Below the pieces are notes generated by a model. The model had not been told where the DNA came from. It did not search any database and saw nothing but the letters and a program-made list of their open reading frames with translations. Below are positions 23,280 to 54,491 of a stretch of 64,000 nt of DNA, one piece after another; the stretch's first letter is position 1, and each line of letters opens with the position of its first letter. Location: NCBI GenBank assembly GCA_043821445.1, contig JBDRCT010000029.1, positions 7,317-71,316 on the forward strand, read 5' to 3'. Source of the DNA: Candidatus Omnitrophota bacterium (GTDB lineage: Bacteria > Omnitrophota > Omnitrophia > Omnitrophales > Aquincolibacteriaceae). The position numbers and the translations under genes were made by a program.

Positions 23280-23369
23280 ACGGGACATTTCCATTCTGAA
23301 ACGGAATCAAAGAAAAGGGGACAGGCAATCAATGAATGCCTGTCCCCTTTACCTTTAAGGAAAATTCTC

Positions 23370-27539: not shown

Positions 27540-28076
27540 ATGGCCAATAATAAAAAGAAGGAAGATATCCAGGAGAAGATTCTTGACGTTGACGCGAGCA
27601 TGCAGGGCACGATTTCGTTCAAGGATCCCGTGAATTTGCGCATCAACGGAAGTTTTGAGGGCAAGCTTGACACGCGCGGCAATCTCACGATCGGCGAGAA
27701 CGCCAAGGTCAGCGCGAATATTCACGGCGACAATATCGTCATAGCCGGAAAAGTTTCCGGAGATGTCATGGCGACTCAAAGCATTTCCATTCTTGGAACG
27801 GCAACTCTCAAAGGGAACCTTACCACGCCACGCTTGAGCATCGGAGACGGCGCAATCCTTCAAGGACTTGTGAATATGCAAGGCCTGAGCGTTTCAGATG
27901 GATCGGATGTTTTTTTGACTTTAAAGGATGTGGCGCAGTATTTGGAGGTGGAGGCTCGCATTATTGAAGAGTGGGCACATTCCAAAAAGATCCCGGCCCG
28001 TTTTGATAATGGTCACTGGATCTTTACCAAGACCGAGGTGGATCAATGGGTCCAGCGGGAGAGGGCTTCGGTCTAA
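27540..28076 (+). CDS. bactofilin (DUF583) domain fused to a C-terminal excisionase/MerR-type helix-turn-helix DNA-binding domain
   Basis: Residues ~30-125 have a bactofilin beta-helix repeat pattern (NLTIGENAKVSANIHGDNIVIAGKVSGDV…LKGNLTTPRLSIGDGAILQG). The C-terminus LTLKDVAQYLEVEARIIEEWAHSKKIPARFDNGHWIFTKTEVDQWV matches the HTH_17/excisionase signature. Confidence 0.7.
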   Translation: MANNKKKEDIQEKILDVDASMQGTISFKDPVNLRINGSFEGKLDTRGNLTIGENAKVSANIHGDNIVIAGKVSGDVMATQSISILGTATLKGNLTTPRLSIGDGAILQGLVNMQGLSVSDGSDVFLTLKDVAQYLEVEARIIEEWAHSKKIPARFDNGHWIFTKTEVDQWVQRERASV

Positions 28077-31585: not shown

Positions 31586-34500
31586 TTGAGTCTAAAGTTT
31601 TTTAAGGACTTCATTCTGGCTGTCAAAATGCGTCTCGGTGCTTTTTGGGCCCGGAAGAAGATCGCCGAGGAACAGCCTCTTCGTGCCGAGCTTTTCAGTA
31701 TTGATCAGTTTAAGGCGCATGCGAAAGGCCTGGCCCAAAGACATCGTGTCAGTTACAAAAAGGGGCAGAACCGGCTCTTGCTTCGGTTGAGAAAAAATGA
31801 ACAGGTGCTTTCGGAGATCCACGAATTACTTAACGAGACGGGAAAACCCAAACGAAGGATCGCGCCGGCCGGAGAATGGCTTCTCGATAATTATTATCTC
31901 ATTGAAGAACAAATAAGGCTCGCCCAGAAATACCTCCCGGGAAAGTACATCCGCGAACTTCCCCATCTTCTTCGAGGACCGCTTGCCGGTTATCCGCGTG
32001 TTTATGAGCTTGCCATGGAGCTTGTCTCCCACGGCGACGGACGGCTGGATAGCCAGGGGCTTGCGGAGTTTGTCACGGCATATCAAACCGTCAGCCACTT
32101 GAAACTCGGCGAACTGTGGGCCATCCCCATTATGTTAAGGCTGGCGCTTATCGAAAACTTGAGGCGCGTATCCTCCCGGTTGATTGTGGCACAAATGGAA
32201 AGAGATAAAGCGGATCATTGGGCGACGCGGATCCTGGGAGTTTCGGCCAAAGATACCGATGGGGTGATCTTTGAAATCGCAGCGATGGCCAAAGGGAACC
32301 TGCCGCTTTCCGACGCTTTTGTCGCGGAATTCACACGGCGTTTGCATGGTCAAAGCCAAGCGCTCACTCTTCCTTTTGCTTGGTTGGAAAAGAAACTTGC
32401 GGAGCAAGGAGAGACCCTCGACAGAATCATCCGGGCAACCAGCCAAAAACAGGCGGCCGATCAGGTCTCGATCGCGAACACGATTGGGAGTCTGCGTCTT
32501 CTGGAAGTTACCAATTGGCATGATTTTGTCGAAGCCTTGAGCGTTGTCGAAAAGGTTTTGAGCCAGGATCCATCGGGAGATTACAGCCGGATGTCTTTCG
32601 AGACCCGCGATCGCTATCGGCATGTCGTGGAGAAGCTTTCTTTGAGAAGCAAGACCGGCGAAGAGAAGATCGCGGCGCGCGCGATCCAGATCGCAAAGAG
32701 GGCCGAAGGGGAGAAAGGTCCTGGCCACGTCACGACGCATGTAGGTTTTTATCTTCTCGATAAAGGATTGGAGCTTTTTTGTGGCGAACTGGGCTTTCGC
32801 TTACCTCTCCGGCAGTATCTTCAGGCGAAAAAAAATTTTTGGCCGGCTGTCCTGTATTTTTCTTCCATTACTGTGATGACCCTTACCTTGACCGCAGGTA
32901 TTTTGTTTTGGATGAAGCCAGGGGGGAGCTCGAATTGGCCGTGGTTTCTTTTATTCGGGATGCTCCTTCTGTTCGCGATAAGCCAGACGGCGGTGTCACT
33001 TGTCAACTGGTTTTCCGCGATGCTCGTGAGCCCCCAAGACCTTCCCCGGATGGATTTTTCAGAAGGAATTCCCGCTTACGCCCATACGCTGGTCGTGATC
33101 CCTTGCATGCTCAGTAACGCGCGCATGGTTACCGCACTTTTCGAAGGGCTAGAGGTCCACTATCTTGCGAATATCGACGCGAATACGGATTTTGCCCTCT
33201 TAACGGATTTTTGCGATGCCCCGCAGGAGACGATGCCTGAGGATGCGGCCTTGTTGGAGCAAGTTACGGACGGGATTGAGCAGCTGAATCACAAATATCG
33301 ACGGCGGAAAGATCACGTTTTCTATCTTCTTCACAGGCCGCGCCGGTGGAATGAAAAAGAAAAGGTGTGGATGGGGTATGAACGCAAGCGGGGCAAACTG
33401 GCGGATCTTAATGCGTTCCTTCGCGGAAAAGGGGAAGGCCGGTTTAGCGTGATTCTCGGGGACCCGCAGAGGCTTCAGACCGTGAAATATGTCATCACGC
33501 TGGATACGGACACCCGGATGCCACGGAACGCGGCGCGGGAGCTTGTCGGGGTCATCGCGCATCCGTTGAACAAGGCGGTCTATGATGAAAAAAAACAGCG
33601 GGTCATCTCCGGATACGGGATCCTCCAGCCCCGGGTCGAATCCAGTTATCCTGGAGAAAATCCTTCTTTGTTCGTGAGAGTCTTTGGAGGCGATTCCGGG
33701 ATCGATCCTTACACCAAAGCGGTGTCCGATATTTACCAGGATCTTTTCTTCGAAGGGTCTTTTATCGGTAAAGGGCTTTATGACGTCGATGCGTTCGAAA
33801 GATCCATGGAAGGCCGTTTCCCGGAAAATCTTATCTTAAGTCATGATCTTTGGAGGGCTGTTACGCCCGCTCAGGGCTTGTGACGAATGTTCAATTCTAC
33901 GAGGAATATCCCTCGGGTTATCTTAAAGACTCAAACAGGAGATACCGTTGGATCCGCGGGGATTGGCAAATCGTTCCCTGGTTGTTCGCTTCGGTCCGCG
34001 GGTCCAGCGGCGCAAAGGCCCGAAATCCGGTTTCTTTTCTGTCTCAATGGAAGATCGTGGATAACTTAAGACGGAGTCTTGTTCCTTTTGCGACGGTTTT
34101 GCTGCTTGTGTCAGGCTGGATGTTTTTTCAGCCATCCTGGATGTGGTCGGTCTTTGTGATCGTTCTTCTTGGTTTTCCCCTCGTGCCGATATCTCTGACG
34201 GAGGCGGTGAGGAAACCCGGGGATCTGACCTTCAAGACCCATTTTGGGCTGGTGTTGTCTTCATTCAAGAAGAACGTGGTCCGGTTCTTCTTCTCGATCG
34301 CTTTTTTGCTGCACGAGGCGTTCTATTCTTTGGATGCGATCGTGCGAACTTTGTGGAGAATGTTCGTGTCGCGGAGGCATTTGCTGGAATGGCGGCCCTC
34401 CCGGGATTCGGAAGTGTCTCTGCGAAAAAATATTTTAGATTGCTACAGGAACATATTCCTGGAACCCATTGCCGCGGGGCTATTGCTGGTTTGCCCTTCG

Positions 34501-37500
34501 GGTGTGTTCCCGACTTTCGACGGGTTGGCGCTGATCCTTTTAAGCCTGTGGTTCCTTTCTCCTCTTGTGGCGTATGGGATCAGCCGACCCTCTTCTCCCC
34601 GCAAGATCCTGCTGTCCAAAACGCAGGTCCTGTTTCTCAGAAATCTTGCCAGGAGAACTTGGGCGTTCTTCGAGAACTTTGTGACCGAGAAGGAACATTG
34701 GCTACCTCCGGACAACTTCCAGGAAGAGCCCGTGAGGGTCGTAGCCCACAGGACCTCTCCGACGAATATCGGCCTGTTGCTGCTGGCGAATTTGACGGCC
34801 TATGATTTTGGTTATGTTTCGATGGGAATGATGTTCCACAGGACCGAAAAAACATTCGATACCCTAAACTTAATGGAAAAATTCAGGGGGCATTTTTATA
34901 ATTGGTACGATACGGAATCGCTCAGGCCGCTCCTGCCTCTTTATGTCTCTTCAGTCGACAGCGGGAACCTGGCCGGTCATCTCATGGTGCTTCGCTCGGG
35001 GCTCGCGGAAATGAACGCGCAAAAGGTCGTCTCTCCTAAAGCATTTAACGGCCTTACGGACACGTTGAATATCCTGCATCAAAGTATCACGGAGCTTGAG
35101 AAAAGCCAAAAAAACGCCGTCTCCGAACCTCTTCGGGGAGTTTTCGAAAGGATCAAGCAATTCCAGGAAAAGACCAAGACTTCACCCGCATGCCTTTCGG
35201 AGATCCATACGCTTTTACGCCAACTTTCAACAGATATTTCAAAGGTCCTTTCGGTCCTGGACCAGAAATATTATGAAAAAGTCAAAAAATGGGCCCGTGC
35301 CTTCGAGAGGCAATGTTACGATTTTCTGGAAGATATGTCTTTTATCGCTCCCTGGATCCTGCTTGCCCCGGAAACGCCCGGGATGTGGGACGGAGGAGAT
35401 GAGGCGCAAAATAAGCGGCTGGCCCGGCTCCGTGAGGCCTTGCAGTATTTGGATGAGATCCCTACTCTCGGGGAAGTGGCAAGGCTTGAGCAAAAACTGG
35501 TTCCGCTTATCGAGGAGATCGCTCGGGCCCTGGTCCTTACGGACGAGGAGTCCCGTAGGACCTACGACTGGTTCATGAAACTCCGTGACGCGATCAAGGA
35601 AGCCGGGACACGGTCCGCAGAGCGGATCAAGGCGATCGACTATATCGTTTTGCGATGTAATGAAGTCTCCGGCATCGAATATGAGTTCTTGTACGACAAG
35701 GACTCTCACCTCCTTTCCATCGGATACAATGTCAGTGAGCACAAGGTGGATCGCGGTTGTTATGACCTTTTGGCGTCCGAGGCCAGGCTCTGCAGTTTTG
35801 TCGCGATCGCCCAAGGAAGAATGCCTCAGGATCATTGGTTCAAGCTTGGCCGGATGATCTCAAAGTCCGAAGGAGATCATGTCCTGGTCTCCTGGGGCGG
35901 ATCGATGTTTGAATATCTCATGCCTCTCTTGGTGATGCCGACCTATGAAGGGAGTCTGCTGGACCGGACCTACAAGGCCGTGGTCAGCGGTCAGATCCGG
36001 TATGCGGCCAAGAACAATATTCCCTGGGGGATATCAGAGTCCGGCTACAATAAGATCGACGCGAACAGGGTCTACCAGTATCATTCGTTCGGAGTTCCGG
36101 ACATGGGGTTCAAGCGCGGCCTCGCGGAGGATCTGGTCGTGGCTCCGTATGCCTCGATGCTAGCCCTGATGGTAGAACCGGAAAAGGCCTGCGAGAATCT
36201 CGGGCGCTTATCCGCGGAAGGAGCCGGAGGAATCTATGGTTTCTACGAAGCAGTGGATTACACGCCGGCGCGTCTTACCCCGGATGAAACCCGGGCGGTC
36301 GTGAAATCCTACATGGCCCATCATCAAGGTATGAGTTTGTTGTCCCTGGCTTATGTGTTACTGGATCGTCCGATGCAAAGACGCTTTCTCGCGGAACCGA
36401 TGTTCAAATCAACGGAACTTCTTCTCCAGGAACGGGTCCCCACCGCCGAATCTTTTCTCTACGATTTTGAAGTGACTGGTATGCTCCGGAAATTTGGAGA
36501 ACGGGAAACGCTTTTGCGGGTGTTCACGACCCCTCACACACCGGTGCCTGAAGTCCATCCTCTCTCGAATGGCCGGTATCATGTGATGGTCACCAATGCC
36601 GGAGGAGGCTACAGCCGTTGGAAAAATCTTGCAGTGACGCGATGGGTCGAGGACTCGGCGCTCGACAACGACGGAACCTTCATCTACATCCGGGATGTGG
36701 AGTCCGGCCAGTTCTGGTCCTCGGCGTATCAGCCGACGCAAAAAAAACCAAGAAACTATGAGGCCTTGTTTTCCCAGGCTTGGGTGGAATTCAAACGGAG
36801 GGACCACCAGATCGATACGCATACCGAGATCGCGGTCTCTCCGGAAGATGACATTGAACTGCGTCGCGTGACGATCACCAATCGGTCTCGGAACAGACGT
36901 ATCATCGAAGTGACTAGCTATGCGGAAGTCGTCTTGAACGATCCCGCAAGTGATCAGGCCCATCGGGCGTTCAGCAACCTGTTCGTTCAGACCGAAATTA
37001 TCCGGTCTCACCAAGCGATCCTTTGCCGGCGGCGGCCGCGGTTCGACAAGGAAATATTCCCTTGGATGTTGCATCTGATGGCGGTCCATGGGGATGCGGT
37101 CGTTGGTGCCTCTTACGAGACGGATCGGAACAAATTTATCGGACGAGGCCATACCGTGGCTGATCCCGCAGCGATGGAGGGGCGCGGCCATCTCTCAGAT
37201 AGTGAAGGTTCTGTGCTCGACCCGATCGTTTCGATACGGAGCCGGATCGAGCTGGCGCCCGACGAATCAGCCGTGATCGATTATGTGATGGGAATGTGTG
37301 AGAATCGCGAAGCTGCTCAGGCCTTGATGGAAAAATATAGGGACCGGAATCTGGCCGACCGTGTTTTTAACCTGGCCTGGACCCACGGGCAGGTTGCTTT
37401 GCAGCAGATTAATGCTACGGAGGCTGCCGCCCAGTTGTACGGCCGTCTGGTCAGTGCCATTCTGTATGCCAATCCCGCGTGGAGAGCGAGCGCGAGTATC

Positions 37501-40374
37501 TTGCGGCGAAATAACCGGGGGCAGCCGGATCTTTGGGGATACGGTATTTCGGGTGATCTTCCGATCGTGCTTGTATGCATCGAAAATCAGGACAATATCG
37601 ATCTTATCGTGCAGATGATCCAGGCTCATGCCTATTGGCGCATGAAGGGGCTGGCGGTCGATCTGGTCATATGGAACGAAGATACTTCCGTTTACCGCGA
37701 TAGTCTTGGGGAACGGATCAGCGGGTTGATCGCTGCGAATGCCGAGGAAAGAGCGGGCCAGAGAGGCGGTATTTTCTTAAGGCGCGTCGATCAGATGTCA
37801 GATGAGGACCGGATCCTTATGCAAACGGTTGCGCGGATCATTATTTCGGATCGCGGAGGTACGCTAGCTGAGCAGCTGGAGGATATGACGCAGCCCAAAG
37901 CGAACTTGCTCCCTTTTGTTCCGACCCGGAAAGAGGATCAAGAGGAAGAGGATCGAGGCCCCGCGGAGCGCTCCGATCTGGCTTATTTTAACGGCGTAGG
38001 AGGATTTACCTTGGACGGGCGGGAATACGTGATCACGACCTCACGATCGAGGCCTACTCCCGCTCCGTGGGTCAATGTGCTGGCGAACCGGCATTTCGGT
38101 ACGGTGGTTTCGGAAAGTGGAAGTGCTTACACCTGGAGCGAGAATGCACATGAATTTCGTCTTACACCTTGGAAGAATGATCCCGTTTCGGATGCTTCCG
38201 GAGAGGCGCTTTACATCCGCGATGACGAAAGCGGGAGATTTTGGTCTCCAACCCCGTTTCCCGCGATGGGGAAGACCCGTTACACTTCGCGCCATGGATT
38301 CGGCTATAGCATTTTTGAACACACTGAAAACGGGATCGTTTCGGAATTAACGGTGTTCGTTTCCCTGGAGGAGCGCGTTAAATTCTCAAGTTTGAAGATC
38401 AAGAATATTTCCGGGCGCCGGCGGCGTCTTTCCGTGACGGCGTATTATGAGCTGGTCATGGGAACCATCCGGGATAAATATCACACGCATATCGTGACCG
38501 AGATCGATCCTAAAAGCGGTGCTCTGCTTGCGCGGAATCCCTATAACAAAGCATTTCCGGACCGGGCTGTTTTTTTAGATGTCAGTGAACCGGTGCGTTT
38601 CGTCACCGGGGACCGGATCGAATTTATCGGAAGGAACGGGATGATGCAAGCGCCTTCCGTGATGCGAAGGGACAGGCTTTCCGGCAAAGTGGGCGCGAGG
38701 ATCGACCCTTGTGTTGCCACGCAGGTTAAATTCGATCTTGAGGGAGACCAGGAAAAAGAGATCCTTTTCACTTTCGGCTCCGGGAAAACGGTAGATGAAG
38801 CGCGGGACCTCGTCCGGCGTTTTAGCGGCAGTGAGGCAGCGCGTCAGGAACTTGAAAGAGTGTGGGAATACTGGAAACGGACTCTAGGGGTCGTGTATGT
38901 GGAAACGCCCGATGTCTCGATCGATTTTCTCGTGAACGGATGGTTGCAATATCAAATCATCAGCTGCCGTCTCATGGGGCGAAGCGGTTTTTATCAATCC
39001 GGCGGGGCCTTCGGCTTCCGGGACCAGCTTCAGGACGTGATGGCGCTCGTCCATTCGAAACCGGAAATGGTCCGGGAGCAATTGCTCTTCTTTGCTGCGC
39101 ACCAGTTTGTGGAAGGAGATGTGCAGCACTGGTGGCATCCGCCCTCCGGCCGCGGGGTTCGGAGCCAGTGTTCGGATGATTATCTGTGGCTTCCGTTCGT
39201 GACGTGTCTCTATGTCGAAAAGATCGGGGACACAGGGATCCTTGATGAAACGATCGGGTTCCTGGAAGGGCCGCCGGTCAAGCCGGAAGAAGAATCTTAC
39301 TACGATATGCCGAGAGCCTCCGCCTTGGCTGGGACCCTTTACGAACATTGTGTTTTGAGTGTTAAAAGAGGGTTGAAGTTCGGCGCTCACGGCCTTCCTC
39401 TCATGGGAAGCGGGGACTGGAATGACGGGATGAATCTGGTCGGGCGCGAAGGAAAAGGCGAAAGCGTCTGGCTCGCTTTTTTTCTTTTCGATGTTCTTAA
39501 ATCGATGGCGGTTCTGGCAGCCCAGCGCGGGGATACGGCCTTTTCGGAGTTCTGTGTTGCAGAGTCCGGAAAGCTTGCTAGGAATATTGAAGAGCATGCG
39601 TGGGACGGCGAGTGGTATCGCCGGGCTTATTTCGACAATGGAGATCTTCTGGGTTCTTCCCAGAATAGCGAATGCCGGATCGATTCGATCTCACAGTCCT
39701 GGGCGGTCCTTTCAGGCGCGGCCGAGCGGGACAGGGCCCGAAGGGCCATGGATCAGGTGGACCGGCAGTTGGTCGACAGGAAACACGCGCTCGTCAAATT
39801 ATTCGACCCGCCTTTTAATAAAGCTTTTCCCAACCCGGGATACATCAAAGGCTATGTCCCCGGCGTGCGGGAGAACGGCGGACAGTACACGCACGCTGCC
39901 GTCTGGGTGGCGATCGCGTTCGCGGTCTTAGGGGATAAAAAACGGGCTTGGGAGTTACTTAATATGATCAACCCGGTGCATCATTCCGATACTGCCGATA
40001 AGTGCGCCGTTTACAAAGCGGAACCGTTCGTGATGGCCGGAGATGTCTATGCCGCTCCGGGTTTTTCCGGACGCGGGGGATGGACTTGGTACACAGGATC
40101 CGCGTCCTGGATGTATCAACTTATCGTGAAGTATTTGATGGGGCTCCGGCTGAAAGTGGACAGGCTTTATTTCGAGCCGTGTCTTCCCGCGGATTGGTCT
40201 TCTTGGAAGTTGCATTACCGATATCGGGAGACCTTCTATCACATCACATTTCTTCGGGCGGGATCTTTGGACCACGTGATTTCCGTGACCGTGGACGGCG
40301 TCGAGCAGGAAGAGAGAACCCTCCTGCTTGTTGATGACCGGATTGAGCACTCAGCCGAGGTGAAAATCGGATAA
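31586..40374 (+). pseudogene. cyclic beta-1,2-glucan synthase (Cgs/NdvB/ChvB-like, GT84 + GH94 domains, ~2930 aa) split by a -1 frameshift at ~33848-33850
   Basis: ORF1 (765 aa) ends …NLILSHDLWRAVTPAQGL*. ORF2 begins (TTG) LEGCYARSGLVTNVQFYEEYPSGY…RWIRGDWQI. Intact homologs read …SHDLLEGCYARSGLV…, so one T is missing from a T-run (CTTTGG where CTTTTGG is expected). The N-terminus (…GYPRVYELAMELVSH…GELWAIPIMLRLALIENLRR) is typical of Cgs. Confidence 0.8.
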
Positions 40375-40803: not shown

Positions 40804-40887
40804 GCGGGGATGGCGGAACTGGCAGACGCACTGGACTCAAAATCCAGCGGTAGCAATACCATGAGAGTTCGACTCTCTCTCTCCGCA
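40804..40887 (+). tRNA. tRNA-Leu (anticodon CAA), type II with long variable arm, no encoded CCA
   Basis: Acceptor stem GCGGGGA/TCTCCGC, anticodon loop CUCAAAA, variable arm CGGTAGCAATACCATG, T-loop AGTTCGACTCT. Confidence 0.85.
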
Positions 40888-40916
40888 TGATTTTACTTCT
40901 AGGAGATAGCCCGTTC

Positions 40917-43574
40917 ATGGCCAGCGGCTTTAAAGCATATCCTTTCGACGAGATCGAAAAAAAATGGCAGACCTACTGGGCTGACCACAAGACCTTCCGC
41001 GCTCCTGATCCCGGCGAAACCGGCAGCGACAAACTTAAGTATTACGTCCTCGATATGTTTCCTTATCCTTCCGGTTCGGGTCTCCATGTCGGTCATCTCG
41101 AAGGTTATACTGCGACCGATATTGTCAGCCGTTATAAACGCATGCGTGGGTTCAATGTTTTGCATCCCATGGGCTGGGACGCATTCGGACTTCCAGGCGA
41201 GCAATACGCCATCGAAACCGGTACACATCCTCGCGAAACCACCCAAAAGAATATCCAAACCTTCAAGCGCCAGATCCAGCAGGTCGGTTTCAGCTACGAC
41301 TGGGATCGTGAGGTCGATACGACGGATCCCCATTATTTCCGCTGGACCCAGTGGATCTTCATGAAGCTCTTTGAAAAAGGCCTCGCCTACGAATCTGAGA
41401 TCCCGGTGTGGTGGTGCGATGGCTGCAAGACCGTTCTCGCGAACGAGGAAGTGGATGCCAACGGTACCTGTGAACGTAAAGGTCACAAGGATGTCTACCG
41501 CCGCCCGCTTCGCCAGTGGATCCTCAAAATTACCGCCTATGCCGAACGTCTTTTGAAAGATCTGGATCTTTTGGATTGGTCCGAATCCATCAAGGAAATG
41601 CAGCGTAATTGGATCGGGAAATCCGTTGGCGCAGAAGTCGATTTCAGATTGGAAAAAAGTTCCGACGTCATTCGTGTTTTCACCACACGGCCGGACACCC
41701 TGTTCGGAGCGACGTATATGATTTTAGCGCCGGAACACCCCCTGGTGGCAAAGATTACGACTCCGGCCCAAACGAAGGCCGTGCAAGCTTATGTGGCCAC
41801 CGCGACGCACAAATCCGATCTTGATCGCACCGATCTTGCCAAAGAAAAGACCGGCGTTTTTACGGGCGCTTATGCGATCAATCCCGTGAATGATAAGAAG
41901 ATCCCGGTCTGGATTGCGGATTATGTGCTTATGGGGTATGGAACCGGTGCGATCATGGCTGTTCCTGCGCATGACACTCGTGATTTTGAATTTGCGAAAC
42001 AATTCGGATTGGATATAAAAACAGTTATCATTCCAGATGAAGCGTGGGCAATAGAACACGGAAAGAGCATTTCATTAACTGAAAATCTGGAAAATCTTAA
42101 GGACAAATATCGCGATGCGATTCTATCAAGAAGTGTAGTTGCCCCCGAAATAGCTCGGTTAATAGAGAATGGCTCATGGGATATGCAGCAAGCAGGTCCG
42201 GCATTGCGAGGGGCTTATATTCGTTGGCCAGAAAAATTTGATACTGCTTTTACTGGTGTTGGGTTTTGCATAAATTCTAAGACGCCGAATCAAACATTTT
42301 CGATCGATGGAATGTCTAGCGATGCGGCGATTGAAAAAATCACCGCATGGTTAGAAGAGAAAAAAATAGGGAAAAAAACAGTCCAATATAAATTGCGCGA
42401 CTGGCTCTTTAGCCGCCAGCGCTACTGGGGTGAGCCGATCCCGGTTGTTCATTGTGCAAAATGCGGTCCGGTCCTTATTCCTGAAACTGAACTGCCGCTC
42501 AGACTTCCGGAAATGAAGGATTATACGCCGACAGAGAATGCGGAACCGCCGCTTGCCAAGGCCAAGGATTGGCTCCATTGCAAGTGTCCGAAATGTGGCG
42601 GCGCAGCCACGCGCGAAACGAATACCATGCCCCAATGGGCGGGCTCGTGCTGGTATTATCTTCGTTATCTCGATCCCAAAAACACGAAGGCCCCGGTCGA
42701 TCCCCCAAAAGAGAAATACTGGATGAATGTGGATCTTTACGTCGGAGGCGCGGAACATGCGGTGCTTCATCTGCTTTATTCAAGGTTCTGGCATAAGATA
42801 CTTTATGACCTTGGGATCGTCTCCACGCCCGAGCCATTCCAGAGGCTTACGAACCAGGGTATGATCCTCGGCGAAGATAGCCAGAAAATGTCCAAATCGC
42901 GGGGCAACGTGGTCAATCCCGATGAGATGATCGCGCAATACGGCGCCGACAGTCTCCGGCTTTACGAAATGTTCATGGGACCTTTGGAAATGACAAAGCC
43001 GTGGGCGAATTCCGGCGTGGAAGGTGTCTACAGATTTCTCGGGAAAGTGTGGAGGCTTTTTATCGATAAGGACGACAGACTGCACGCCAGTATCGCCCAA
43101 CGTGTCCCCAGTGCCGTCGAATTGAAGACACTCCACAAGACGATCAAAAAAGTGACGGAAGATCTGGAAGGGTTACGTTTTAACACGGCGATCTCGGCTT
43201 TGATGATCTTCATGAACGAAATTGCACAGGAACGAGATCACACGAGGGAAGTGCTGGAGAAATTCTTGCTCCTTTTGGCACCTTTTGCGCCTCATGTGGC
43301 AGAAGAACTATGGCAACGTTTGGGTCACAACCAGACGCTTGCTTATGAAAAATGGCCCGAGTATGATGAAAGGTATCTTGTCGAGGAAGAAACAGAACGG
43401 GCGATCCTGATTGGCGGTAAAGTTCGAGATAAAATAGTCGTTCCTCGTAACCAAGACGAGGAAACTATTAAAAAACAAGTATTAGAATTACCGAAAATCC
43501 GAGCGCTTACGAATAACGGTAAAAATGTTAAAAGGATTATCATTAAAGCCAACACTATAAACTTAGTTGAGTAA
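40917..43574 (+). CDS. leuS: leucyl-tRNA synthetase
   Basis: AGGAGA RBS then ATG 40917. HMGH-type class I motif (…[16 protein letters not shown]…) and KMSKS (QKMSKSRGN). 885 aa. Confidence 0.9.
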
Positions 43575-47248: not shown

Positions 47249-49555
47249 ATGAAGCTGCCATTTTTATGGATCGCAATGGGGTTTTCGCTAGGGATCGTGA
47301 CAGAAAAGTATTGGAATCTTCCCTTCTTATGGGTTGAATGCGGACTTTTCGCAGGGATCGTTCTGCTGTGGTTCTTCCGTGGGAAAAAGTGCTTTGGGGT
47401 GCTTTTTGTGCTTCTTGTGGGATTCTCAGGAGTTCTTTGGGCGCGTCTTGACGCTTATGTTCCGGTGAATGCGGTCCAACACTTTGCAGGTACTGAGCGC
47501 GTGTCGCTCAGGGGGGTTGTTGATTCCTTGCCGGAGATAAAGACGCACGGGAAAAGGAAAACAGTCTCCTTTGTTCTTTCCGCAAATTCGATCACAAAAA
47601 AAGAAAACGGGCGCCGGAAGTTCCTCAAAATAACCGGGAAGGTCCAGGTTTTTTTGCTTCAGTCGCCGGTGATTCCGCAGGTGGGGGACGAGCTTCGACT
47701 TTATGGGGATTTAAACTTGCCCCGTGAAGCTCTCAATCCTGGGGAATTCGATTATGGGAAATTTTTAGAGCAAAAAGGTATCCACGCAATTTTCACGACG
47801 ATCGGAAAAAAAAGCGCGCGGATGACAAAGGAAGGGAATTCTTGGGCCCCAGCCAGGATGATTGCTGTCTCGCGCCGGCACCTTGCAGAGCTTGTGGATA
47901 AAATCTACCAACCTCAGGAAGCCGCGATCGTCAAAGCGCTCGTGCTTGGCCTCCGCAGCGATGTTTCGCCCGAAGTCCGTAGCCAATTCATGAAGACCGG
48001 GACAATCCATTTGCTTGCGATCAGCGGGATGAATATCACTATGATCGCCGGAACATTCTATTTGATATTTCTATTTTTCGGAATGGGGTTTCGGAGAGGC
48101 TCGTGGGTCACTATTCTGATCGTGATTGTTTATGTCGGTCTTGCAGGGTCCGGGATCCCTATCCAACGTGCGGGATATGGCGCGGTGCTGGTACTCCTCG
48201 CGGTGCTAGCCGGGAGGCCGGCTCACCTCTTAAATTCTCTCTGTTTTGCTTTTTTTGTGATACTTGTCTGGAATCCTCAAAGTTTCTGGAACATCGGATT
48301 CCAACTTTCTTTTCTTTGTGTTTTTTCGCTTATTTTGATTCTGCCGCTTTTGGCTCGAGTCAATGCGTGGATCCTTTCCTTGGGCTCAAGTCTGGCGGTG
48401 CTTTTCGGAACGTTCCCTGTCGTGATTTATTATTTTAATATTTTTTCACCGGTCAGTGTTCTAGCGAACATTGTGGCTATTCCACTCTGTGATGCAGCGC
48501 TGTTCATGTCGCTTTTCGCACTCTTGCTCTCAGGGGTGCCATTTCTGAGCATTGTTTTTTTGAAATTTTCTTCCTGGATTATTGTGTGTTCGCTTGTTTG
48601 GGTGAAATGTCTTTCTGCGTGGCGATGGGGGTACTGGTTTCTCGAGCGACCATCCCTCGGTCGACTTGCGGCGTATTACGCGTGCATGGGGATGATCTTG
48701 TTTTTCCATAAAAGGGCTTTTCGCGGAAAACGTTTTCTTATGACCTGCTTAATCGGTTGTTGGATAGGTTTTTCGGTCCTATTTTTCATAGGACCAGGAG
48801 GAAAAGAGTTTACGCTTACAATGCTTGCAAGTGGCAGGAACCAGATCGTATGCGCGCGATTTTCAAACAAAGCATGCTGGCTTCTGAACGCTGGAAGGAG
48901 TTTTCCATCCGATCAGGGTGAATGGCTGATCGCTCCCTTTCTGCGGAACCAGGGGATTCGACGTCTGGAAGGGATACTGTTCTCCGATCTTTCCAAAAAG
49001 CACACGGGAGGTCTCCTATCGGTCTTGAGAGATTTTCCAGTCCGTTATCTTCTTTATCCTGCCGTATCCCTCTATCGGCCCGGCGAATTTCACAAAAACC
49101 TTCTTAAATTGAGCCGCAAAGCTAAGAATTTTCAGCAAGGAGACGAGGTGTTGATGGGGACGGAGAAAATAAGGATGATCGCGCAGTCACAAAAGGGTGC
49201 CGCTTATCTGATCCAATCCGGTCCGTGGCGTATTCTGTTCATCTCGCAGTGGGAGTCCGGGCTTTTCAGGGAATTACTTCGGGGGCATGAGGACGCGGAT
49301 GAGATCCACGCAGTTTTTTTGCCGGCATTGGGGCATGGAATTCCAATCGAAGTTCGAGATTGGCTAGAGCGAGTTCGGCCATTGCTTGTTGTTTTCCCGG
49401 ACTTCCAGGAGGAACTTGCTTCGTATTTTTCCGTCCGCTGCGTTCCTTTTCTTGCTCTGAAACATACCGGTGCGTTGCATTTCAAGAGAAGTGGTTCCCA
49501 GCTTGTGCTGGCGTCGTTCTTGAGGGGACCTTTGGGTGTTTATTCGTACCTGTGA
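47249..49555 (+). CDS. comEC: DNA internalization-related competence protein ComEC/Rec2
   Basis: 768 aa polytopic membrane protein with a DUF4131-like N-terminus, a competence domain and a C-terminal metallo-beta-lactamase-like region. Confidence 0.8.
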   Translation: MKLPFLWIAMGFSLGIVTEKYWNLPFLWVECGLFAGIVLLWFFRGKKCFGVLFVLLVGFSGVLWARLDAYVPVNAVQHFAGTERVSLRGVVDSLPEIKTHGKRKTVSFVLSANSITKKENGRRKFLKITGKVQVFLLQSPVIPQVGDELRLYGDLNLPREALNPGEFDYGKFLEQKGIHAIFTTIGKKSARMTKEGNSWAPARMIAVSRRHLAELVDKIYQPQEAAIVKALVLGLRSDVSPEVRSQFMKTGTIHLLAISGMNITMIAGTFYLIFLFFGMGFRRGSWVTILIVIVYVGLAGSGIPIQRAGYGAVLVLLAVLAGRPAHLLNSLCFAFFVILVWNPQSFWNIGFQLSFLCVFSLILILPLLARVNAWILSLGSSLAVLFGTFPVVIYYFNIFSPVSVLANIVAIPLCDAALFMSLFALLLSGVPFLSIVFLKFSSWIIVCSLVWVKCLSAWRWGYWFLERPSLGRLAAYYACMGMILFFHKRAFRGKRFLMTCLIGCWIGFSVLFFIGPGGKEFTLTMLASGRNQIVCARFSNKACWLLNAGRSFPSDQGEWLIAPFLRNQGIRRLEGILFSDLSKKHTGGLLSVLRDFPVRYLLYPAVSLYRPGEFHKNLLKLSRKAKNFQQGDEVLMGTEKIRMIAQSQKGAAYLIQSGPWRILFISQWESGLFRELLRGHEDADEIHAVFLPALGHGIPIEVRDWLERVRPLLVVFPDFQEELASYFSVRCVPFLALKHTGALHFKRSGSQLVLASFLRGPLGVYSYL

Positions 49556-49577
49556 GCTGTTTTTTGGGTCATTTCTA

Positions 49578-49607
49578 TTGACAATTTTTCTTGCCCCATG
49601 ATATAGT
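49578..49607 (+). promoter_or_regulatory. putative promoter TTGACA-17/18-TATAGT upstream of the 49651 gene
   Basis: Seen in sequence. Confidence 0.4.
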
Positions 49608-49650
49608 AACTCCTCGCAAATTTTCCTAACTTGAAGTTTTTAAACGACTT

Positions 49651-52600
49651 ATGAAAATCTCAAAGGTTTTTGCCCTCATTTTTATACTGCTTCTTCCGTA
49701 CACTTTCGCCTTTGCGGATTGGGTCTGGTCTCCCGAGCAGGGGAAGTTCGTCAATACTGAATCCGAAACTCAAAGCGGTGCTGATGACATCTTCGATAAT
49801 GCCCTCGATCTTTATAAAGAGAAAAAGCTCGATAAAGCGGCCGATCAATTCAAAATAGTTCTCAAGCAATACCCCAAATCCCGGGTAGCCCCCGAATCAC
49901 AATATCGGCTTGGGACCATTTTTGAAGAGACGGGTGATTTTGTGGAAGCTCATAAGGCCTATCAGGCTCTGATCAAAGAATATCCCCAGAGCGAGCGTTT
50001 TGAAGAGGTGATTGAGCGCGAGTACCAAATTGGGACTATGTTCCTTTCCGGGAAAAAAGGAAAGCTCATGGGGCTCGATATTCGCCCATCATTGCCGTTG
50101 GCCATTGAAGTGTTCCAAAAAATCGTGGCAGCGGCGCCTTATGGGGCATTCGGGGACAAAGCTCAGTTCGATCTCGGGGTTGCTTACCAAAAGTCCGGAA
50201 GCTTTGATGATTCACTAGAAGCCTACCAAAATTTGATCGATCAATACCCGCAAAGCAACCTGCTTCAGGAGGCTCGTCTTCGGATGGCCGAAGTTTCGTA
50301 TGCGAAATCCTCAAGCCAGACACGTGACCAAAGTGCGCTCGAAGAAGCGGCCCGTCAGGCACAGGGCTATCTTAAGCGGTATCCGGGTTCCGAAGAAGCC
50401 GGAAAGGCAGAGAAGATCAGCCAGGAAGTAGATGAACTGAATGCTGAGAAGAACTATCGGATCGGTCTCTATTATGAGAAGGATAATTATCTTACAAGTG
50501 CACTGATCTATTATTCGGATACCGCGAAGCGCTATCCGAATACGAGTTGGGGCCAGAAGGCCGTAGAAAAACTTCATTCATTGCAAGAGCCTGTGAAATA
50601 TCTTAATGCCAAGGCCGGAGAGTTACAGAAAGAGTTGGAGGCTTTGCAGGCGAAATACCAGGCGCTGGGGCCGGGGCAGAAGTCCGAGCGGGAACAACTT
50701 AAAAAGGAGATCGCTGAGCTGCAGAAGCGTATTCAGGCGATCGATAAGAACAAATCCGAGAGTTTGAATCGACGTAAACAGGACCTTAAACGCCGCGAAC
50801 GGGAACTGAATGAAAAATTTAAAGAGCTCGCGCGTAAGAAAAAACGCTTCAAGAATAATACATCTCCCGAATTCCAAAATGCCATGGATCGCTGGCAAGG
50901 ATCTCTTGAGGCCGAGCGTGATGCGCTTGCCGAAGAAAAGAGCCGTCTCGCGTCTTGGCGCTCAGAGCTCGGGATCTCGGATACGAAGTTTTATGAAAAC
51001 CTGATCCCGGACCACCTGATACCGTTTATGGGAAAGCCCGAGACTCCGCTACAAAAGATCCAACAGATGGACGAAAAAGAACTTTATAAGCTCTCCCGGA
51101 AGAAGAAGGAACTTCTTGAAAAGAAAGAGAAGCTCTACAAGCGTTATAGTGAGCTTCAGACCTTGCTGATGCCTGAGCGTTCCGAAAGCGGCCTGAAACG
51201 AAAGCGTTTGCGTGGTGTCGCGAAAAAAGATTCCGGCGAGCCCACCGATCCCAAACTTTTGGCGCGAAAGAATGATATCGAGGCTCTCGAGGCTAAGTTG
51301 GACGAGAAAATGGCGCTCTATGAAAAACATTTTGGAAAATCCGCCGAGCAGGAGCTTGAGGCGATGATCGAAAATCAAGCGGCTCAAAAGCAGGCTTTTA
51401 ATCCGTTTACCGTCGAAACGGGCGACCTTCAAAAGAAGAGCATCGAAGAATTACTTGAGTTGAAAATGCATCTTGCGGAGCAGGTCAAGGCCCAACAGGA
51501 TATTGTTGAAACTCTTAGCACTGCTTTTGATAAGGAGCTGGCTTTGAGGGAACAGCAGGCTATGATGAAGTCTTTTGATGACCAAAAGGATGTCGATGTG
51601 CGTAAGCTTCGCAAAGAGATCAAAAGTACGGAAAAGGAACTCCGCAAACGTTATCAAGACATTCAAGATCGTCAGAAGAACAAAGGGAGGCTTCTTGCCA
51701 GCTTGGATGAGGCGTTGAAACCTGAGGAAGGGAGGGGAAAAGTTCTGAAGACCCTTGCCAAACCGGTTACGGGTCCTGCCTATCTTGCCCAAGCATTTAT
51801 TTTTGGGCTTCCGAACAAGGATGTTACTTTGACCGACGCCGCGAAGAAACCGGGCTCCGATGCGAAAGCAAAAAAAATTCAGCAAGGGATTGAGCTGGAA
51901 AGTCTCATGATCCAGGCGCAGGCTGAGGAGATCAACAAGCTTGAAAAAGAGCTCGAAATTTTGAACGCGAAGGCATCGTTCGCCGGAGGTATGAAGTTCC
52001 GTGCTTCGTACGTTAAGGTGCCGTACACATTTATTGAGGAGGCCGTTCAAAGCTCGCGCCGCGTTGTTCCAAGGAAAAACAGGAAAGATGTGCTTCTGAA
52101 TCGATTGGACAATCAGACCCAAGAGCTTGACCGGTTCAAAGCTGAGTTGGAGGCTACGGAGGCCGTGATCAAGGAAAAGACGCCTGCGGCCCTTCCTAGT
52201 CATTCTACGGCTACAGAAACAGACGCGGACAAAAAGGAAAAGGCCGAATTGGTCCCGGATGAGAAACAACTCCGGGAAGATGCTATGAGCCTGCGGGAGC
52301 AGCTTGAGATCTCCTACAGTATTTACGCCCGTGAGCAAGGACTCGTGCTTGGCGATGCGGGTCTGGAAGAAGTTCCAACGGACGCTGAAGGCGCTAAGAG
52401 GTATCGAGAGTACAAAAAAGTGGAGGCGGAACTCGCCGGTGTGATCGATGAAGAACTTGTGATTGAACAGCAGGAGAGGTCGATCCTTGAAAAGCGGATC
52501 GCAGAAGCTGATAAAGTGATACCGACCGTGACTTCCAAGGCGATGCAGCAGGATCTTGGGACGGAAAAGACTCGCATCGGGCAGCGCCTTTCAGACCTGG

Positions 52601-52653
52601 CCACGCGGCATGATTTTCTTTCCAAGGAAAAAGAACGTTTCAGCATCAAGTGA
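49651..52653 (+). CDS. secreted 1000-aa protein: BamD/YfiO-like TPR N-terminal domain + ~700-aa coiled-coil tail
   Basis: Signal peptide with no lipobox Cys. Residues ~45-290 resemble BamD-family TPR lipoproteins (…YRLGTIFEETGDFVEAHKAYQALIKEYPQSE…AQFDLGVAYQKSG…YQNLIDQYPQSN…). The remainder is a K/E/Q/L-rich coiled coil. Confidence 0.6.
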   Translation: MKISKVFALIFILLLPYTFAFADWVWSPEQGKFVNTESETQSGADDIFDNALDLYKEKKLDKAADQFKIVLKQYPKSRVAPESQYRLGTIFEETGDFVEAHKAYQALIKEYPQSERFEEVIEREYQIGTMFLSGKKGKLMGLDIRPSLPLAIEVFQKIVAAAPYGAFGDKAQFDLGVAYQKSGSFDDSLEAYQNLIDQYPQSNLLQEARLRMAEVSYAKSSSQTRDQSALEEAARQAQGYLKRYPGSEEAGKAEKISQEVDELNAEKNYRIGLYYEKDNYLTSALIYYSDTAKRYPNTSWGQKAVEKLHSLQEPVKYLNAKAGELQKELEALQAKYQALGPGQKSEREQLKKEIAELQKRIQAIDKNKSESLNRRKQDLKRRERELNEKFKELARKKKRFKNNTSPEFQNAMDRWQGSLEAERDALAEEKSRLASWRSELGISDTKFYENLIPDHLIPFMGKPETPLQKIQQMDEKELYKLSRKKKELLEKKEKLYKRYSELQTLLMPERSESGLKRKRLRGVAKKDSGEPTDPKLLARKNDIEALEAKLDEKMALYEKHFGKSAEQELEAMIENQAAQKQAFNPFTVETGDLQKKSIEELLELKMHLAEQVKAQQDIVETLSTAFDKELALREQQAMMKSFDDQKDVDVRKLRKEIKSTEKELRKRYQDIQDRQKNKGRLLASLDEALKPEEGRGKVLKTLAKPVTGPAYLAQAFIFGLPNKDVTLTDAAKKPGSDAKAKKIQQGIELESLMIQAQAEEINKLEKELEILNAKASFAGGMKFRASYVKVPYTFIEEAVQSSRRVVPRKNRKDVLLNRLDNQTQELDRFKAELEATEAVIKEKTPAALPSHSTATETDADKKEKAELVPDEKQLREDAMSLREQLEISYSIYAREQGLVLGDAGLEEVPTDAEGAKRYREYKKVEAELAGVIDEELVIEQQERSILEKRIAEADKVIPTVTSKAMQQDLGTEKTRIGQRLSDLATRHDFLSKEKERFSIK

Positions 52654-52666
52654 TCAACGGGGACTT

Positions 52667-53194
52667 ATGATGAAAAATATGCGATGGGTGGGGTTTTGGG
52701 GTTTAGTGGTAGCGGTGGCGTTCAGTGGCTGCGGTTACACCCGTAAGACAGTGTTGCCGCGGAATATGAAAACGATCTATGTGGAGACGGTGAAGAACAA
52801 GCTCGATCCCGAGAATCTTTACGCTTATCAGCCTGGAGTTGAGATGAATATCACCAATGCGGTGATCCAGCGGCTCCAGATGGATGGCACTTTGAAGGTT
52901 GTGGAACAGCAGAAAGCCGACACGATCCTAAAAACGGATTTGCTATCTTTGGATCAAGAGGGGCTTCGTTTCAATTCCTTGGAAGGTGTGTCGCAGTACC
53001 GTCTTTTCATGGTCGTCAGGTTGCAACTTGTGGACGCGAAGACGGGAGATCTGATCTGGGAGGAGCCGAATTTTTCGGGAGGTACTGAGTACTATGTAAC
53101 CACCGTTACATCGATCGGTGAGCAGAAGGCGGCCGTGGATGCCGTTCGTACCCTCGCATATAACATTGCGGATCGTATTGTCGAAGACTGGTGA
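52667..53194 (+). CDS. lptE: LPS-assembly lipoprotein LptE
   Basis: Lipobox AFSGC-GYTR at the start of the mature protein. About 175 aa. Conserved position immediately upstream of holA. Confidence 0.65.
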   Translation: MMKNMRWVGFWGLVVAVAFSGCGYTRKTVLPRNMKTIYVETVKNKLDPENLYAYQPGVEMNITNAVIQRLQMDGTLKVVEQQKADTILKTDLLSLDQEGLRFNSLEGVSQYRLFMVVRLQLVDAKTGDLIWEEPNFSGGTEYYVTTVTSIGEQKAAVDAVRTLAYNIADRIVEDW

Positions 53195-53218
53195 TCCTTT
53201 TTCACGGACGGTACCCTT

Positions 53219-54160
53219 GTGACAGAAGTTTTTCTTATTGCCGGCGATCCGTTCCTTAGAACCCAGAAAACCAAGGTTCTTATTTCTGAGATCGAAAAAA
53301 AAACCGGAGAGTCTCTCGCCCAGCAAACCTTCGACCTGGACGAAACGCCTCTTGAAATCGTTCTAGCCGCCGCAAGAACCCTTCCGTTTCTATCATCGAG
53401 GCAGGTGATTTGTGCGCGGGGAGCTGGATCCTTAAAGGAGCCTGATCTCGCAGTCCTAGCTGCCTACCTCGGAAATCCCGCGTCGAAAACTACTCTGATC
53501 CTGGAATCGGATGATCTCAAAGGCGCTTCGGAGCTTCAAAAGCTTATGAAGGCCAAGGGGCAGCTGATTCTTTTGACGAGGGACGAAGCCCGGGGGGCAG
53601 GCGCGATATTCATCCAGCAAAAGCTCAAGCAATATCACAAGATCATGTCTTCTGGGGCCAAGGCTCGGATTCTTGCCATGTGCGGAGATGCCATGATGTT
53701 CCTGGATACCATGCTTGAGAGGCTCGTGCAGTTTTCGGGTGACCAGCAAGAGATCGATGAAGACATGGTCAACCGGTTCGAAGAGAACTGGACGGAAATG
53801 GATGTTTTTAAGCTCACGAACGCTCTGGTCGACCGTGATCCGGCGAGGGTTCTTAAAGTTTTTCGCGATCTGACAGAATTTTACGAAGCGGATCTTTTTG
53901 CTCTGGTCGGGATCCTGCATTGGCAGCTCCGGCAATTATGGCAGGCGGCCATGCTTTTAACCTCGGGAGTTTCCGAGCGTGAGATCGGCTCCAAGCTTCG
54001 GATGTCCCCGGGCCGTTTGAACGCGTTGAGGCGATTTCCTGTTGAGCGCCTAGAATCAGCCGTGGAAGTACTTTATCAGATCGACCGAAAGTCCAAGAGC
54101 GGTCAACTCGACGGTATTTCAGGGTTGGAAGCTTGGCTTTTGGAATATAGCGCTTTGTGA
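53219..54160 (+). CDS. holA: DNA polymerase III delta subunit
   Basis: 313 aa with an N-terminal delta-subunit domain. Conserved lptE-holA synteny. Confidence 0.8.
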   Translation: MTEVFLIAGDPFLRTQKTKVLISEIEKKTGESLAQQTFDLDETPLEIVLAAARTLPFLSSRQVICARGAGSLKEPDLAVLAAYLGNPASKTTLILESDDLKGASELQKLMKAKGQLILLTRDEARGAGAIFIQQKLKQYHKIMSSGAKARILAMCGDAMMFLDTMLERLVQFSGDQQEIDEDMVNRFEENWTEMDVFKLTNALVDRDPARVLKVFRDLTEFYEADLFALVGILHWQLRQLWQAAMLLTSGVSEREIGSKLRMSPGRLNALRRFPVERLESAVEVLYQIDRKSKSGQLDGISGLEAWLLEYSAL

Positions 54161-54228
54161 TGTCCGATCCAAAGCCGGGTTTTGTGCGGGAATAAAACCA
54201 GGCTTTGAAAGGAAAAATTCAGAGAGTC

Positions 54229-54491
54229 TTACTTTTTCTTGATCTTGGTGAGGAAAAGTGCGATGCGGGATTTTCTCCGGTCCGCACGGCCGTGCGGGAT
54301 CACACCTTTGGTGACCGCGTGGTCATAACGGGCCACCAGGGTGGCAGCTAGCGATTTGGCCTTTTCGGGCTCGGAGGCAAGCTGAGCCAGTTTTTTGCTG
54401 AGGGACTTCAGCTCAGAAAGAACGGCCATATTCTTCGCGCGTTTTTTAGCATCACTTCGAATACGTTTTGCAGCAGAACGAATATTGGGCA
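54229..54491 (-). CDS. rpsT: 30S ribosomal protein S20
   Basis: MPNIRSAAKRIRSDAKKRAKN… matches the S20 family. The longer ORF to 54555 is rejected as an extension. Confidence 0.85.

Follow-up and report, generated by a model that had tools for sequence, protein, structure and literature searches.

A BamD with a predicted non-lipidated N-terminus and a 690-residue segmented α-helical tail in Omnitrophota

The 64,000-nucleotide stretch of DNA analysed here (the window; contig JBDRCT010000029.1 of a Candidatus Omnitrophota genome) encodes a 1000-residue form of the outer membrane protein assembly factor BamD. We show that residues 36-312 of this protein form a BamD-type tetratricopeptide repeat (TPR) solenoid, and that the 690-residue tail which follows is a clade-specific, selectively maintained, segmented α-helical domain without relatives elsewhere. 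Judged from comparison with its homologues, the protein is no lipoprotein and is exported by means of a predicted signal of the signal peptidase I type. The reading that we favour, with somewhat better than even confidence, is that this protein is the BamD subunit of the β-barrel assembly machinery (BAM) in Omnitrophota, non-lipidated, canonical in its head and with a tail that serves as a periplasmic scaffold or docking arm.

The open reading frame (ORF) begins with ATG and has exactly 1000 codons plus a stop; a preliminary description of this DNA had given it the same length and coordinates. Its product matches a database protein (MFH1800036.1; P0001) that was automatically annotated as 'MAG: outer membrane protein assembly factor BamD [Candidatus Omnitrophota bacterium]'. 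The gene and its parts are as follows.

49651..52653, + strand: long bamD gene (ORF; 100% identity to MFH1800036.1)
49651..49716, + strand: signal peptide, residues 1-22, with A-F-A/D signal peptidase I site (homologue comparison)
49717..49755, + strand: mature N-terminus D-W-V-W-S-P-E-Q-G-K-F-V-N, residues 23-35, predicted β-hairpin (homologues and AlphaFold2, AF2)
49756..50586, + strand: TPR head, residues 36-312, 13 helices (TIGR03302, PF13525, AF2, Foldseek)
50587..52650, + strand: C-terminal extension, residues 313-1000, segmented and all-helical (AF2 full-length and tail-only models)
50863..50973, + strand: conserved tail block, residues 405-441 (homologue conservation)
51763..51834, + strand: conserved non-helical/short-helix tail motif, residues 705-728 (homologue conservation and AF2)
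51892..52086, + strand: most conserved tail block, residues 748-812 (homologue conservation and AF2)

The head is recognized as BamD both by sequence models and by structure. It scores 115.5 bits with TIGR03302, the curated NCBIfam model of BamD (cut-off 81.4), and 62 bits with PF13525, YfiO (E=8.8e-17, threshold 25). The AF2 model, built on 89 homologues, shows 13 helices with a predicted local distance difference test (pLDDT) of mostly 90-96 for residues ~45-312. Using Foldseek, this head superposes on E. coli BamD 5ayw_D with TMt 0.77 and a root-mean-square deviation (rmsd) of 2.7 Å over 196 columns, on 3q5m with TMt 0.76 and on Neisseria BamD 5waq with TMt 0.68; the best E-values were obtained with Rhodothermus BamD (3qky/5efr), and chain 9n2d_F of the Flavobacterium johnsoniae BAM was matched as well. 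A BamD/YfiO-like N-terminus, as proposed in the preliminary description, is thus confirmed by the two models and by the superposition on 5ayw_D. In BLASTP, residues 163-327 align weakly with residues 63-236 of E. coli BamD (E=0.011), and this weak alignment places the BamD core at ~150-312, preceded by ~100 extra TPR residues.

Sequence matches in the PDB include BamD (3qky, 5efr) and also CpoB 6g5s (2.5e-09) and YbgF 2xev. The latter two bear on a different reading, namely that the protein is not BamD but a CpoB/YbgF-like or other TPR plus coiled-coil envelope protein concerned with Tol-Pal or division coordination. CpoB likewise joins a coiled coil with TPRs, and residues 46-116 score 79.7 bits with TIGR02795 (YbgF). 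This score is, however, below the cut-off of 90.1, and NF008068 (CpoB) gives only 43.4 bits against a threshold of 383, whereas the cut-off of the BamD model is exceeded. Furthermore, the domain order is the reverse of that in CpoB, the neighbouring genes are comEC and lptE with no tol-pal genes nearby, and it is BamD that gives the best superpositions over the full domain. We therefore regard this reading as very unlikely.

In order to describe the N-terminus we used 192 non-identical homologues. The signal peptide of the window protein ends AFA/DW and lacks a lipobox Cys. At the predicted cleavage site, position -1 is occupied by Ala in 179 homologues and by Gly or Ser in 10, and position -3 is A, S, V, L, T or G in 191. 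None of the 192 has a lipobox, with the Cys at +1 expected of BamD as an outer-membrane lipoprotein, which upholds the signal peptidase I signal (AFA-DW) without lipobox of the preliminary description. Each carries instead an AxA-type site, directly ahead of the motif described below. Residues 3-21 are the sole hydrophobic stretch of transmembrane strength in the whole protein, and no transmembrane segment follows the signal peptide. The neighbouring LptE retains its lipobox, S/G-G-C-G-Y-T, in loci encoding the long BamD and in those encoding the short form described below. Hence these organisms possess the lipoprotein pathway, and it is BamD specifically that appears not to use it.

The predicted mature protein starts one residue before the motif W-V-W-S-P-E-x-G-K-F-[VI]-N, of which both W and the P are present in every homologue, S and G in 187 of 192 and F in 183. 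A Trp-rich N-terminal hairpin, x-WVWSPExGKFVN, would on our proposal replace the lipid anchor, holding BamD on the inner side of the outer membrane or docking on BamA; that is, it may be a stand-in for the anchor as a membrane-interface or BamA-docking element. We also considered WVWSP as a general sorting signal and rejected it, the motif being confined to BamD in six-frame translations of the window and 80 related loci (~1 Mb of Omnitrophota DNA). Non-lipidated relatives outside the long form are P0129, P0130 and P0131. The more distant of these, P0130 (347 aa) and P0131 (421 aa), also have no lipobox Cys and start with another aromatic, hairpin-like motif (Q-Y-R-L-N-D-G-Q-W-Q-L and Q-Y-K-L-I-N-G-Q-W-E-K-L, respectively). 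The distant-relative loci are L081, 912-2550 (GCA_038331335.1), and L082, 6001-7266; lptE follows P0130, as in the Omnitrophota loci. Non-lipidated BamD with an N-terminal hairpin may extend beyond Omnitrophota.

We then compared loci across relatives, taking one genome per GTDB species and scanning with family-specific peptide patterns. The scan found 126 relatives and 78 loci were kept, all from Omnitrophota metagenome-assembled or single-amplified genomes (two labelled "Planctomycetia"). The long form (940-1123 aa) was found in about 60 loci. Eight loci (L073-L080) encode a short form of 313-371 aa with a head 33-38% identical to that of the window protein; it ends at about residue 315-330 of the latter, has no tail and shares the motif of the non-lipidated N-terminus, [YF]-W-[VIL]-W-[ST]-P-x-x-G-K-[WF]-[VI]-N-P. 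The order ComEC-BamD-LptE-HolA-RpsT(-)-MurJ-UvrC is common to long-form loci and to the short-form loci L073-L080 and L084. This shared synteny, together with the shared motif, implies that the long protein is orthologous by position to the BamD of ordinary size found in this phylum, and that it has gained a C-terminal extension. The preliminary description had suggested a divergent BamD, and this is now well supported by the model thresholds, the fold match and the positional orthology with short bamD genes.

All classifiable long-form genomes (RIFOXYB12_FULL_50_7, AM-2014-D6_bin-627, UBA2337, UBA1443, GWA2_52_8, Omnitrophus fodinae AAA011-A17 and CG11..45_26) belong to class Omnitrophia, order Omnitrophales (Seymour et al. 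2023). The window protein is 83% identical to its Aquincolibacterium lacustre homologue (L007), and the source lineage is Omnitrophia, Omnitrophales, probably family Aquincolibacteriaceae.

Across relatives 35-90% identical, the tail is colinear with few indels over ~690 residues. Eighteen of its positions are invariant, among them W415, L419, E422, Y496, E610, R654, R665, F716, G719, R784, P791, E942, R979 and L990, and many more are near-invariant; a low-complexity tail, which the preliminary description had allowed for, is not what we found. The block at 405-441 reads S-x-x-F-x-x-A-x-D-R-W-x-x-S-L-E-A-E-R-D-A-L ... W-R-x-E-L-G and contains the first three invariant residues listed. The motif at 705-728, P-x-x-G-x-x-x-L-x-x-A-F-x-F-G-L-P-x-x-D-V-x-L-T, contains F716 and G719, and the block at 748-812 includes the non-helical A-S-x-A-G-G-x-K-F-R-x-S-x-V-K-V-P-Y-x-F-I, with R784, P791 and a further invariant residue, A798. 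The conserved non-helical motifs of the tail are residues 705-728 and 776-800. Compared with the closest unsaturated relative, dN/dS is 0.12 for the tail (helices 0.09, loops 0.33) and 0.07 for the head. The tail is under strong purifying selection.

There are two tail subgroups. The window-like group has a conserved C-terminus, R-x-D-F-L-S-K-E-x-E-R-F. The divergent subgroup, which includes O. fodinae, shares ~320-850 and has an unrelated sequence over the last ~150 residues; one of its members (L059) is without residues 851-1000. In two other proteins, P0162 (1139 aa) and P0183 (1163 aa), the tail starts at ~residue 445 instead of ~320, and there may be a further insertion at their N-terminus or in their head.

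When residues 316-1000 were run exhaustively with phmmer over 1.84 billion representative proteins, 72 matches were obtained at E<=0.001, all in the same family, these being ~1000-aa proteins (tail from ~320-450) or fragments of such; neither a stand-alone tail nor an unrelated coiled-coil protein was seen among these representatives. A 17-sequence tail profile found nothing above chance in PDB sequences and Pfam. Foldseek with the tail model returned only the arms of MukB, SMC/condensin and Rad50, matches that are not meaningful because the TM-score is <=0.13 and the rmsd >40 Å.

These data also bear on whether the long gene is an artefact, that is, a short bamD joined by frameshift or mis-assembly to a coiled-coil gene, or a non-functional run-on. 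Short forms of 313-371 aa do exist, and some database entries (P0123, L023, L058, L064) are truncated or frameshifted; P0123 (316 aa), which we considered as a short form within the long-form lineage, was rejected as a frameshifted fragment. However, the long ORF, of 940-1120 aa, is uninterrupted in >60 genomes at species level and in ~115 protein clusters, and the tail dN/dS is ~0.1. No tail stands alone among the 1.84e9 representatives, where the shorter matches begin at residue 1-2 of fragments. In short-form loci lptE directly follows bamD, so that no gene is available there for fusion. An artefact is effectively refuted.

The tail (79 kDa, pI 8.9) consists of 13.1% K, 12.8% E and 11.4% L with 23 Pro and 27 Gly, and is 72% helical. 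AF2 runs on the full-length protein (pLDDT 77, predicted TM-score, pTM, 0.52) and on the tail alone (pLDDT 80.6, pTM 0.50) gave at least 16 tail helices, the longest of 56 residues (8.4 nm). Six loops have pLDDT <50 (~446-461, 508-529, 575-591, 692-707, 845-866 and 901-907), and residues 778-792 are coil in both models. Heptad periodicity was assessed by a home-made test of a/d occupancy in 28-residue windows against composition-matched shuffles, rather than by COILS or MARCOIL. Only 15% of tail windows exceeded the 95th percentile of the shuffles, the register changes repeatedly and a strong signal is seen only at residues 309-350 and 407-434. Taken together, the Pro content, the helix count and the sparse heptads do not describe a continuous, breaker-free coiled coil, and the exceptionally long, uninterrupted coiled coil of the preliminary description gives way to a segmented domain. 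No internal repeats were detected by HHalign between five tail segments (probabilities <=28%), and we rejected a repeat origin of the tail on these values.

The preliminary description had envisaged that this tail, a coiled coil of ~100 nm, could be a periplasm-spanning ruler or tether. On such a reading a single long coiled coil, alone or oligomeric, would set the distance from the outer membrane to the inner membrane or peptidoglycan, much as Lpp fixes the spacing of envelope layers in E. coli. The conserved length of the tail, its high helix content and its two strong heptad segments are all consistent with this role, and the only Foldseek matches are to long coiled-coil arms (MukB, condensin, Rad50). 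The poor quality of those same matches speaks against it, however, as do the segmentation by short helices, Pro residues and disordered loops, the shifting register and a pTM of 0.50, which suggests that helices pack on each other. Conservation of the C-terminal ~150 residues is, moreover, poor in the divergent subgroup, and L059 does not have them. Omnitrophota cells are mostly ~0.2 μm across, and 3/4 sorted Omnitrophia cells were <0.3 μm (PMC10066038). A 100-nm rod would thus equal half the cell diameter. We consider a ruler of this kind unlikely, a single rod being at odds with the segmentation, the sparse heptads and the cell size; a shorter rod or scaffold formed by the tail would be compatible with the data.

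Pairing between tail helices was addressed by mean-field direct coupling analysis (DCA) of 183 full-length sequences (Neff 128), using a reduced alphabet and summing along anti-diagonals. We discarded the resulting helix pairs, as gap-rich loops dominate and a parallel-diagonal control scores as high as the antiparallel one; the positive control also failed, in that adjacent TPR helices of the head were not recovered. The discarded analysis gave weak hints only, of local hairpins 314-338/344-399, 344-399/406-440 and 912-959/963-998. An SMC-like global fold-back, considered on the basis of matching helix lengths in 313-399 and 912-998, is weakened by L059, which lacks 851-1000, and further by the unrelated C-terminus of the divergent subgroup.

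Another possibility is that the tail is a built-in chaperone, with arms like the tentacles of Skp or prefoldin or in place of SurA or BamB/C/E, which would bind unfolded outer-membrane proteins and pass them on to the TPR head and BamA. Residues 288-398 show weak similarity to Pfam OmpH/Skp (PF03938, E=0.0033), prefoldin beta appears among marginal matches of the tail profile (E=0.037 and 0.34) and the tail is basic. Its attachment point also corresponds to the site on E. coli BamD at which accessory lipoproteins bind. The OmpH score is nevertheless 18.1 bits against a threshold of 32.4, below what would identify a Skp protein. These sub-threshold matches lie in the most coiled-coil-like segment and may be compositional, and Foldseek gave no Skp or prefoldin fold match. 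We judge a chaperone role to be improbable.

The tail is most likely, in our view, a periplasmic scaffold or docking arm. According to this model the TPR head would dock on the POTRA domains of BamA and receive incoming outer-membrane proteins, and the tail, leaving BamD at its C-terminal end, would reach into the periplasm as a helical arm with joints, of at most some tens of nanometres. Such an arm could be a scaffold or docking platform tying BAM to peptidoglycan, to an inner-membrane export site, to LptDE or to other BAM complexes, with the non-helical motifs at 705-728 and 776-800 as its putative contact sites. A more ambitious version holds that BamD of Omnitrophales has been rebuilt as a 112-kDa soluble periplasmic protein, with a Trp hairpin in place of the anchor and an arm coupling BAM to a second envelope machine, be it the probably co-transcribed LptE/LptD translocon, an inner-membrane export site or peptidoglycan. 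As a joint claim we hold this to be rather doubtful.

Several points weigh against the scaffold model as a whole. R197 of E. coli BamD, a residue in contact with BamA in that species, aligns to Tyr here in the weak alignment described above. The genome scan found one bamD locus per GTDB genome using patterns specific to this family, which a second, divergent lipidated BamD might escape. The strands of the N-terminal hairpin (25-27 and 32-34) are modelled by AF2 with low confidence (pLDDT ~54), and the covariation test of tail helix pairing was underpowered. Finally, these organisms are uncultured, and we infer the scaffold function of the tail from its modelled shape and its conservation alone.

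The genes around bamD are comEC upstream and lptE, holA, rpsT (minus strand), murJ, uvrC and metH downstream. The features considered here are the following.

49578..49607, + strand: promoter-like site TTGACA-18 nt-TATAGT, TG-extended (11/12 consensus matches)
52667..53194, + strand: lptE, lipoprotein gene with lipobox A-F-S-G-C (PF04390, E=1.1e-11)
53219..54160, + strand: holA, DNA polymerase III delta subunit (TIGR01128, 173.9 bits)

The putative promoter lies in the comEC-bamD gap, ~44 nt upstream of the bamD start codon, and is the sole such site in 49300-54400, as judged by consensus match only. The PF04390 protein with its lipobox begins 13 nt past the bamD stop, so that the adjoining lptE of the preliminary description is correct. 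No terminator-like site was seen between the two genes, and lptE and bamD are probably co-transcribed; holA is the third gene in the conserved bamD-lptE-holA string. As a clue to the tail, this context was of no help: lptE also neighbours the short forms and P0130, so the linkage predates the tail and is uninformative on its function. The window also encodes mlaE-mlaF-mlaD, which implies that the organism is diderm, and no BamA gene was found within the window.

A leuS gene is located ~9 kb upstream of lptE-holA (40887-43574 vs 52667-54160), with GH35, an ExeA-like AAA ATPase, comEC and the long bamD between leuS and lptE; in E. coli leuS, lptE and holA are adjacent. On the contig of a relative 41% identical (L001 16412-19159, L002 16379-19159) uvrC is followed by a giant gene of >3700 aa with matches to Methyltransf_23 and FHA. 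It agrees with reports of giant ORFs in Omnitrophia (PMC10066038).

Elsewhere in the window, positions 22001-26000 have a GC content of 0.585 against ~0.50 in the rest. The ORFs there (21933-23279, 23370-24227, 24548-25906 minus and 26568-27347 minus) encode two FecR-domain proteins and a CHASE2-adenylate/guanylate cyclase, then a HTH_29/HTH_32 transposase-like protein, and the segment may be a horizontally acquired island. A 2174-aa protein at 31586-40374, preceded by a 765-aa ORF without a Pfam match, combines two GH94 modules with a glucoamylase domain and possibly has to do with cyclic beta-1,2-glucan metabolism. Two unusual fusions were noted: in one (17647-18747) a ParA/MinD-type ATPase carries a CBM48/AMPK glycogen-binding module at its C-terminus, and in the other (27540-28076) a bactofilin domain is joined to an HTH_17 DNA-binding domain.

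BamD is one of only two essential, near-universal subunits of BAM and is described as a lipoprotein. Here a whole phylum appears to make BamD without a lipid anchor and with an invariant 13-residue N-terminus instead, which prompts one to ask how the protein stays at the membrane. In addition, one order has acquired a strongly conserved 79-kDa domain without relatives, a natural experiment on additions to BAM. Should the coupling of BAM to a second machine prove true, these very small cells would have a new way of organising the biogenesis of their outer membrane across the periplasm, by means of a single polypeptide. That the protein is BamD is already stated by the databases; what is new is its non-lipidated state and the tail, which belongs to no described family, and the plain "BamD" label given by annotation pipelines hides both. 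In the searchable literature on Omnitrophota with BamD, on C-terminal extensions or coiled coils of BamD and on Omnitrophota genomes we found no description of this architecture.

Compared with canonical BamD (E. coli P0AC02, Neisseria 5waq, Rhodothermus marinus 3qky), the window protein has the same TPR solenoid (TMt 0.68-0.77), passes the same family models, TIGR03302 and PF13525, and is likewise a periplasmic protein from an outer-membrane biogenesis locus. In contrast, canonical BamD is a lipoprotein of 240-290 aa acylated at its N-terminal Cys, where we predict signal peptidase I cleavage and no Cys, and it has no counterpart to the WVWSP hairpin, the ~100 extra N-terminal TPR residues or the 690-residue helical C-terminal extension. 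Short-form Omnitrophota BamD (L073-L080 and P0129) shares the motif, the locus and a 33-38% identical head but not the tail. CpoB/YbgF is similarly a non-lipidated periplasmic protein with TPRs and a helical coiled coil, and resembles our protein over TPRs 46-116; however, CpoB has ~260 aa, with the coiled coil N-terminal and the TPRs C-terminal, and is encoded in the tol-pal cluster, and its curated models are not passed here. The long helices interrupted by joints are shared with the arms of MukB, SMC and Rad50, but these differ in their ATPase heads, absent here, and in their compartment, and with TM <=0.13 and no sequence similarity the likeness is an analogy of shape at most. The extended BAM of F. 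johnsoniae (9n2d) provides a precedent from non-proteobacterial phyla for a BAM in which a conserved BamA-BamD core is surrounded by additional mass in the periplasm; there the additional mass comes as separate subunits, to which we saw no similarity, whereas in the window protein it is fused to BamD itself.

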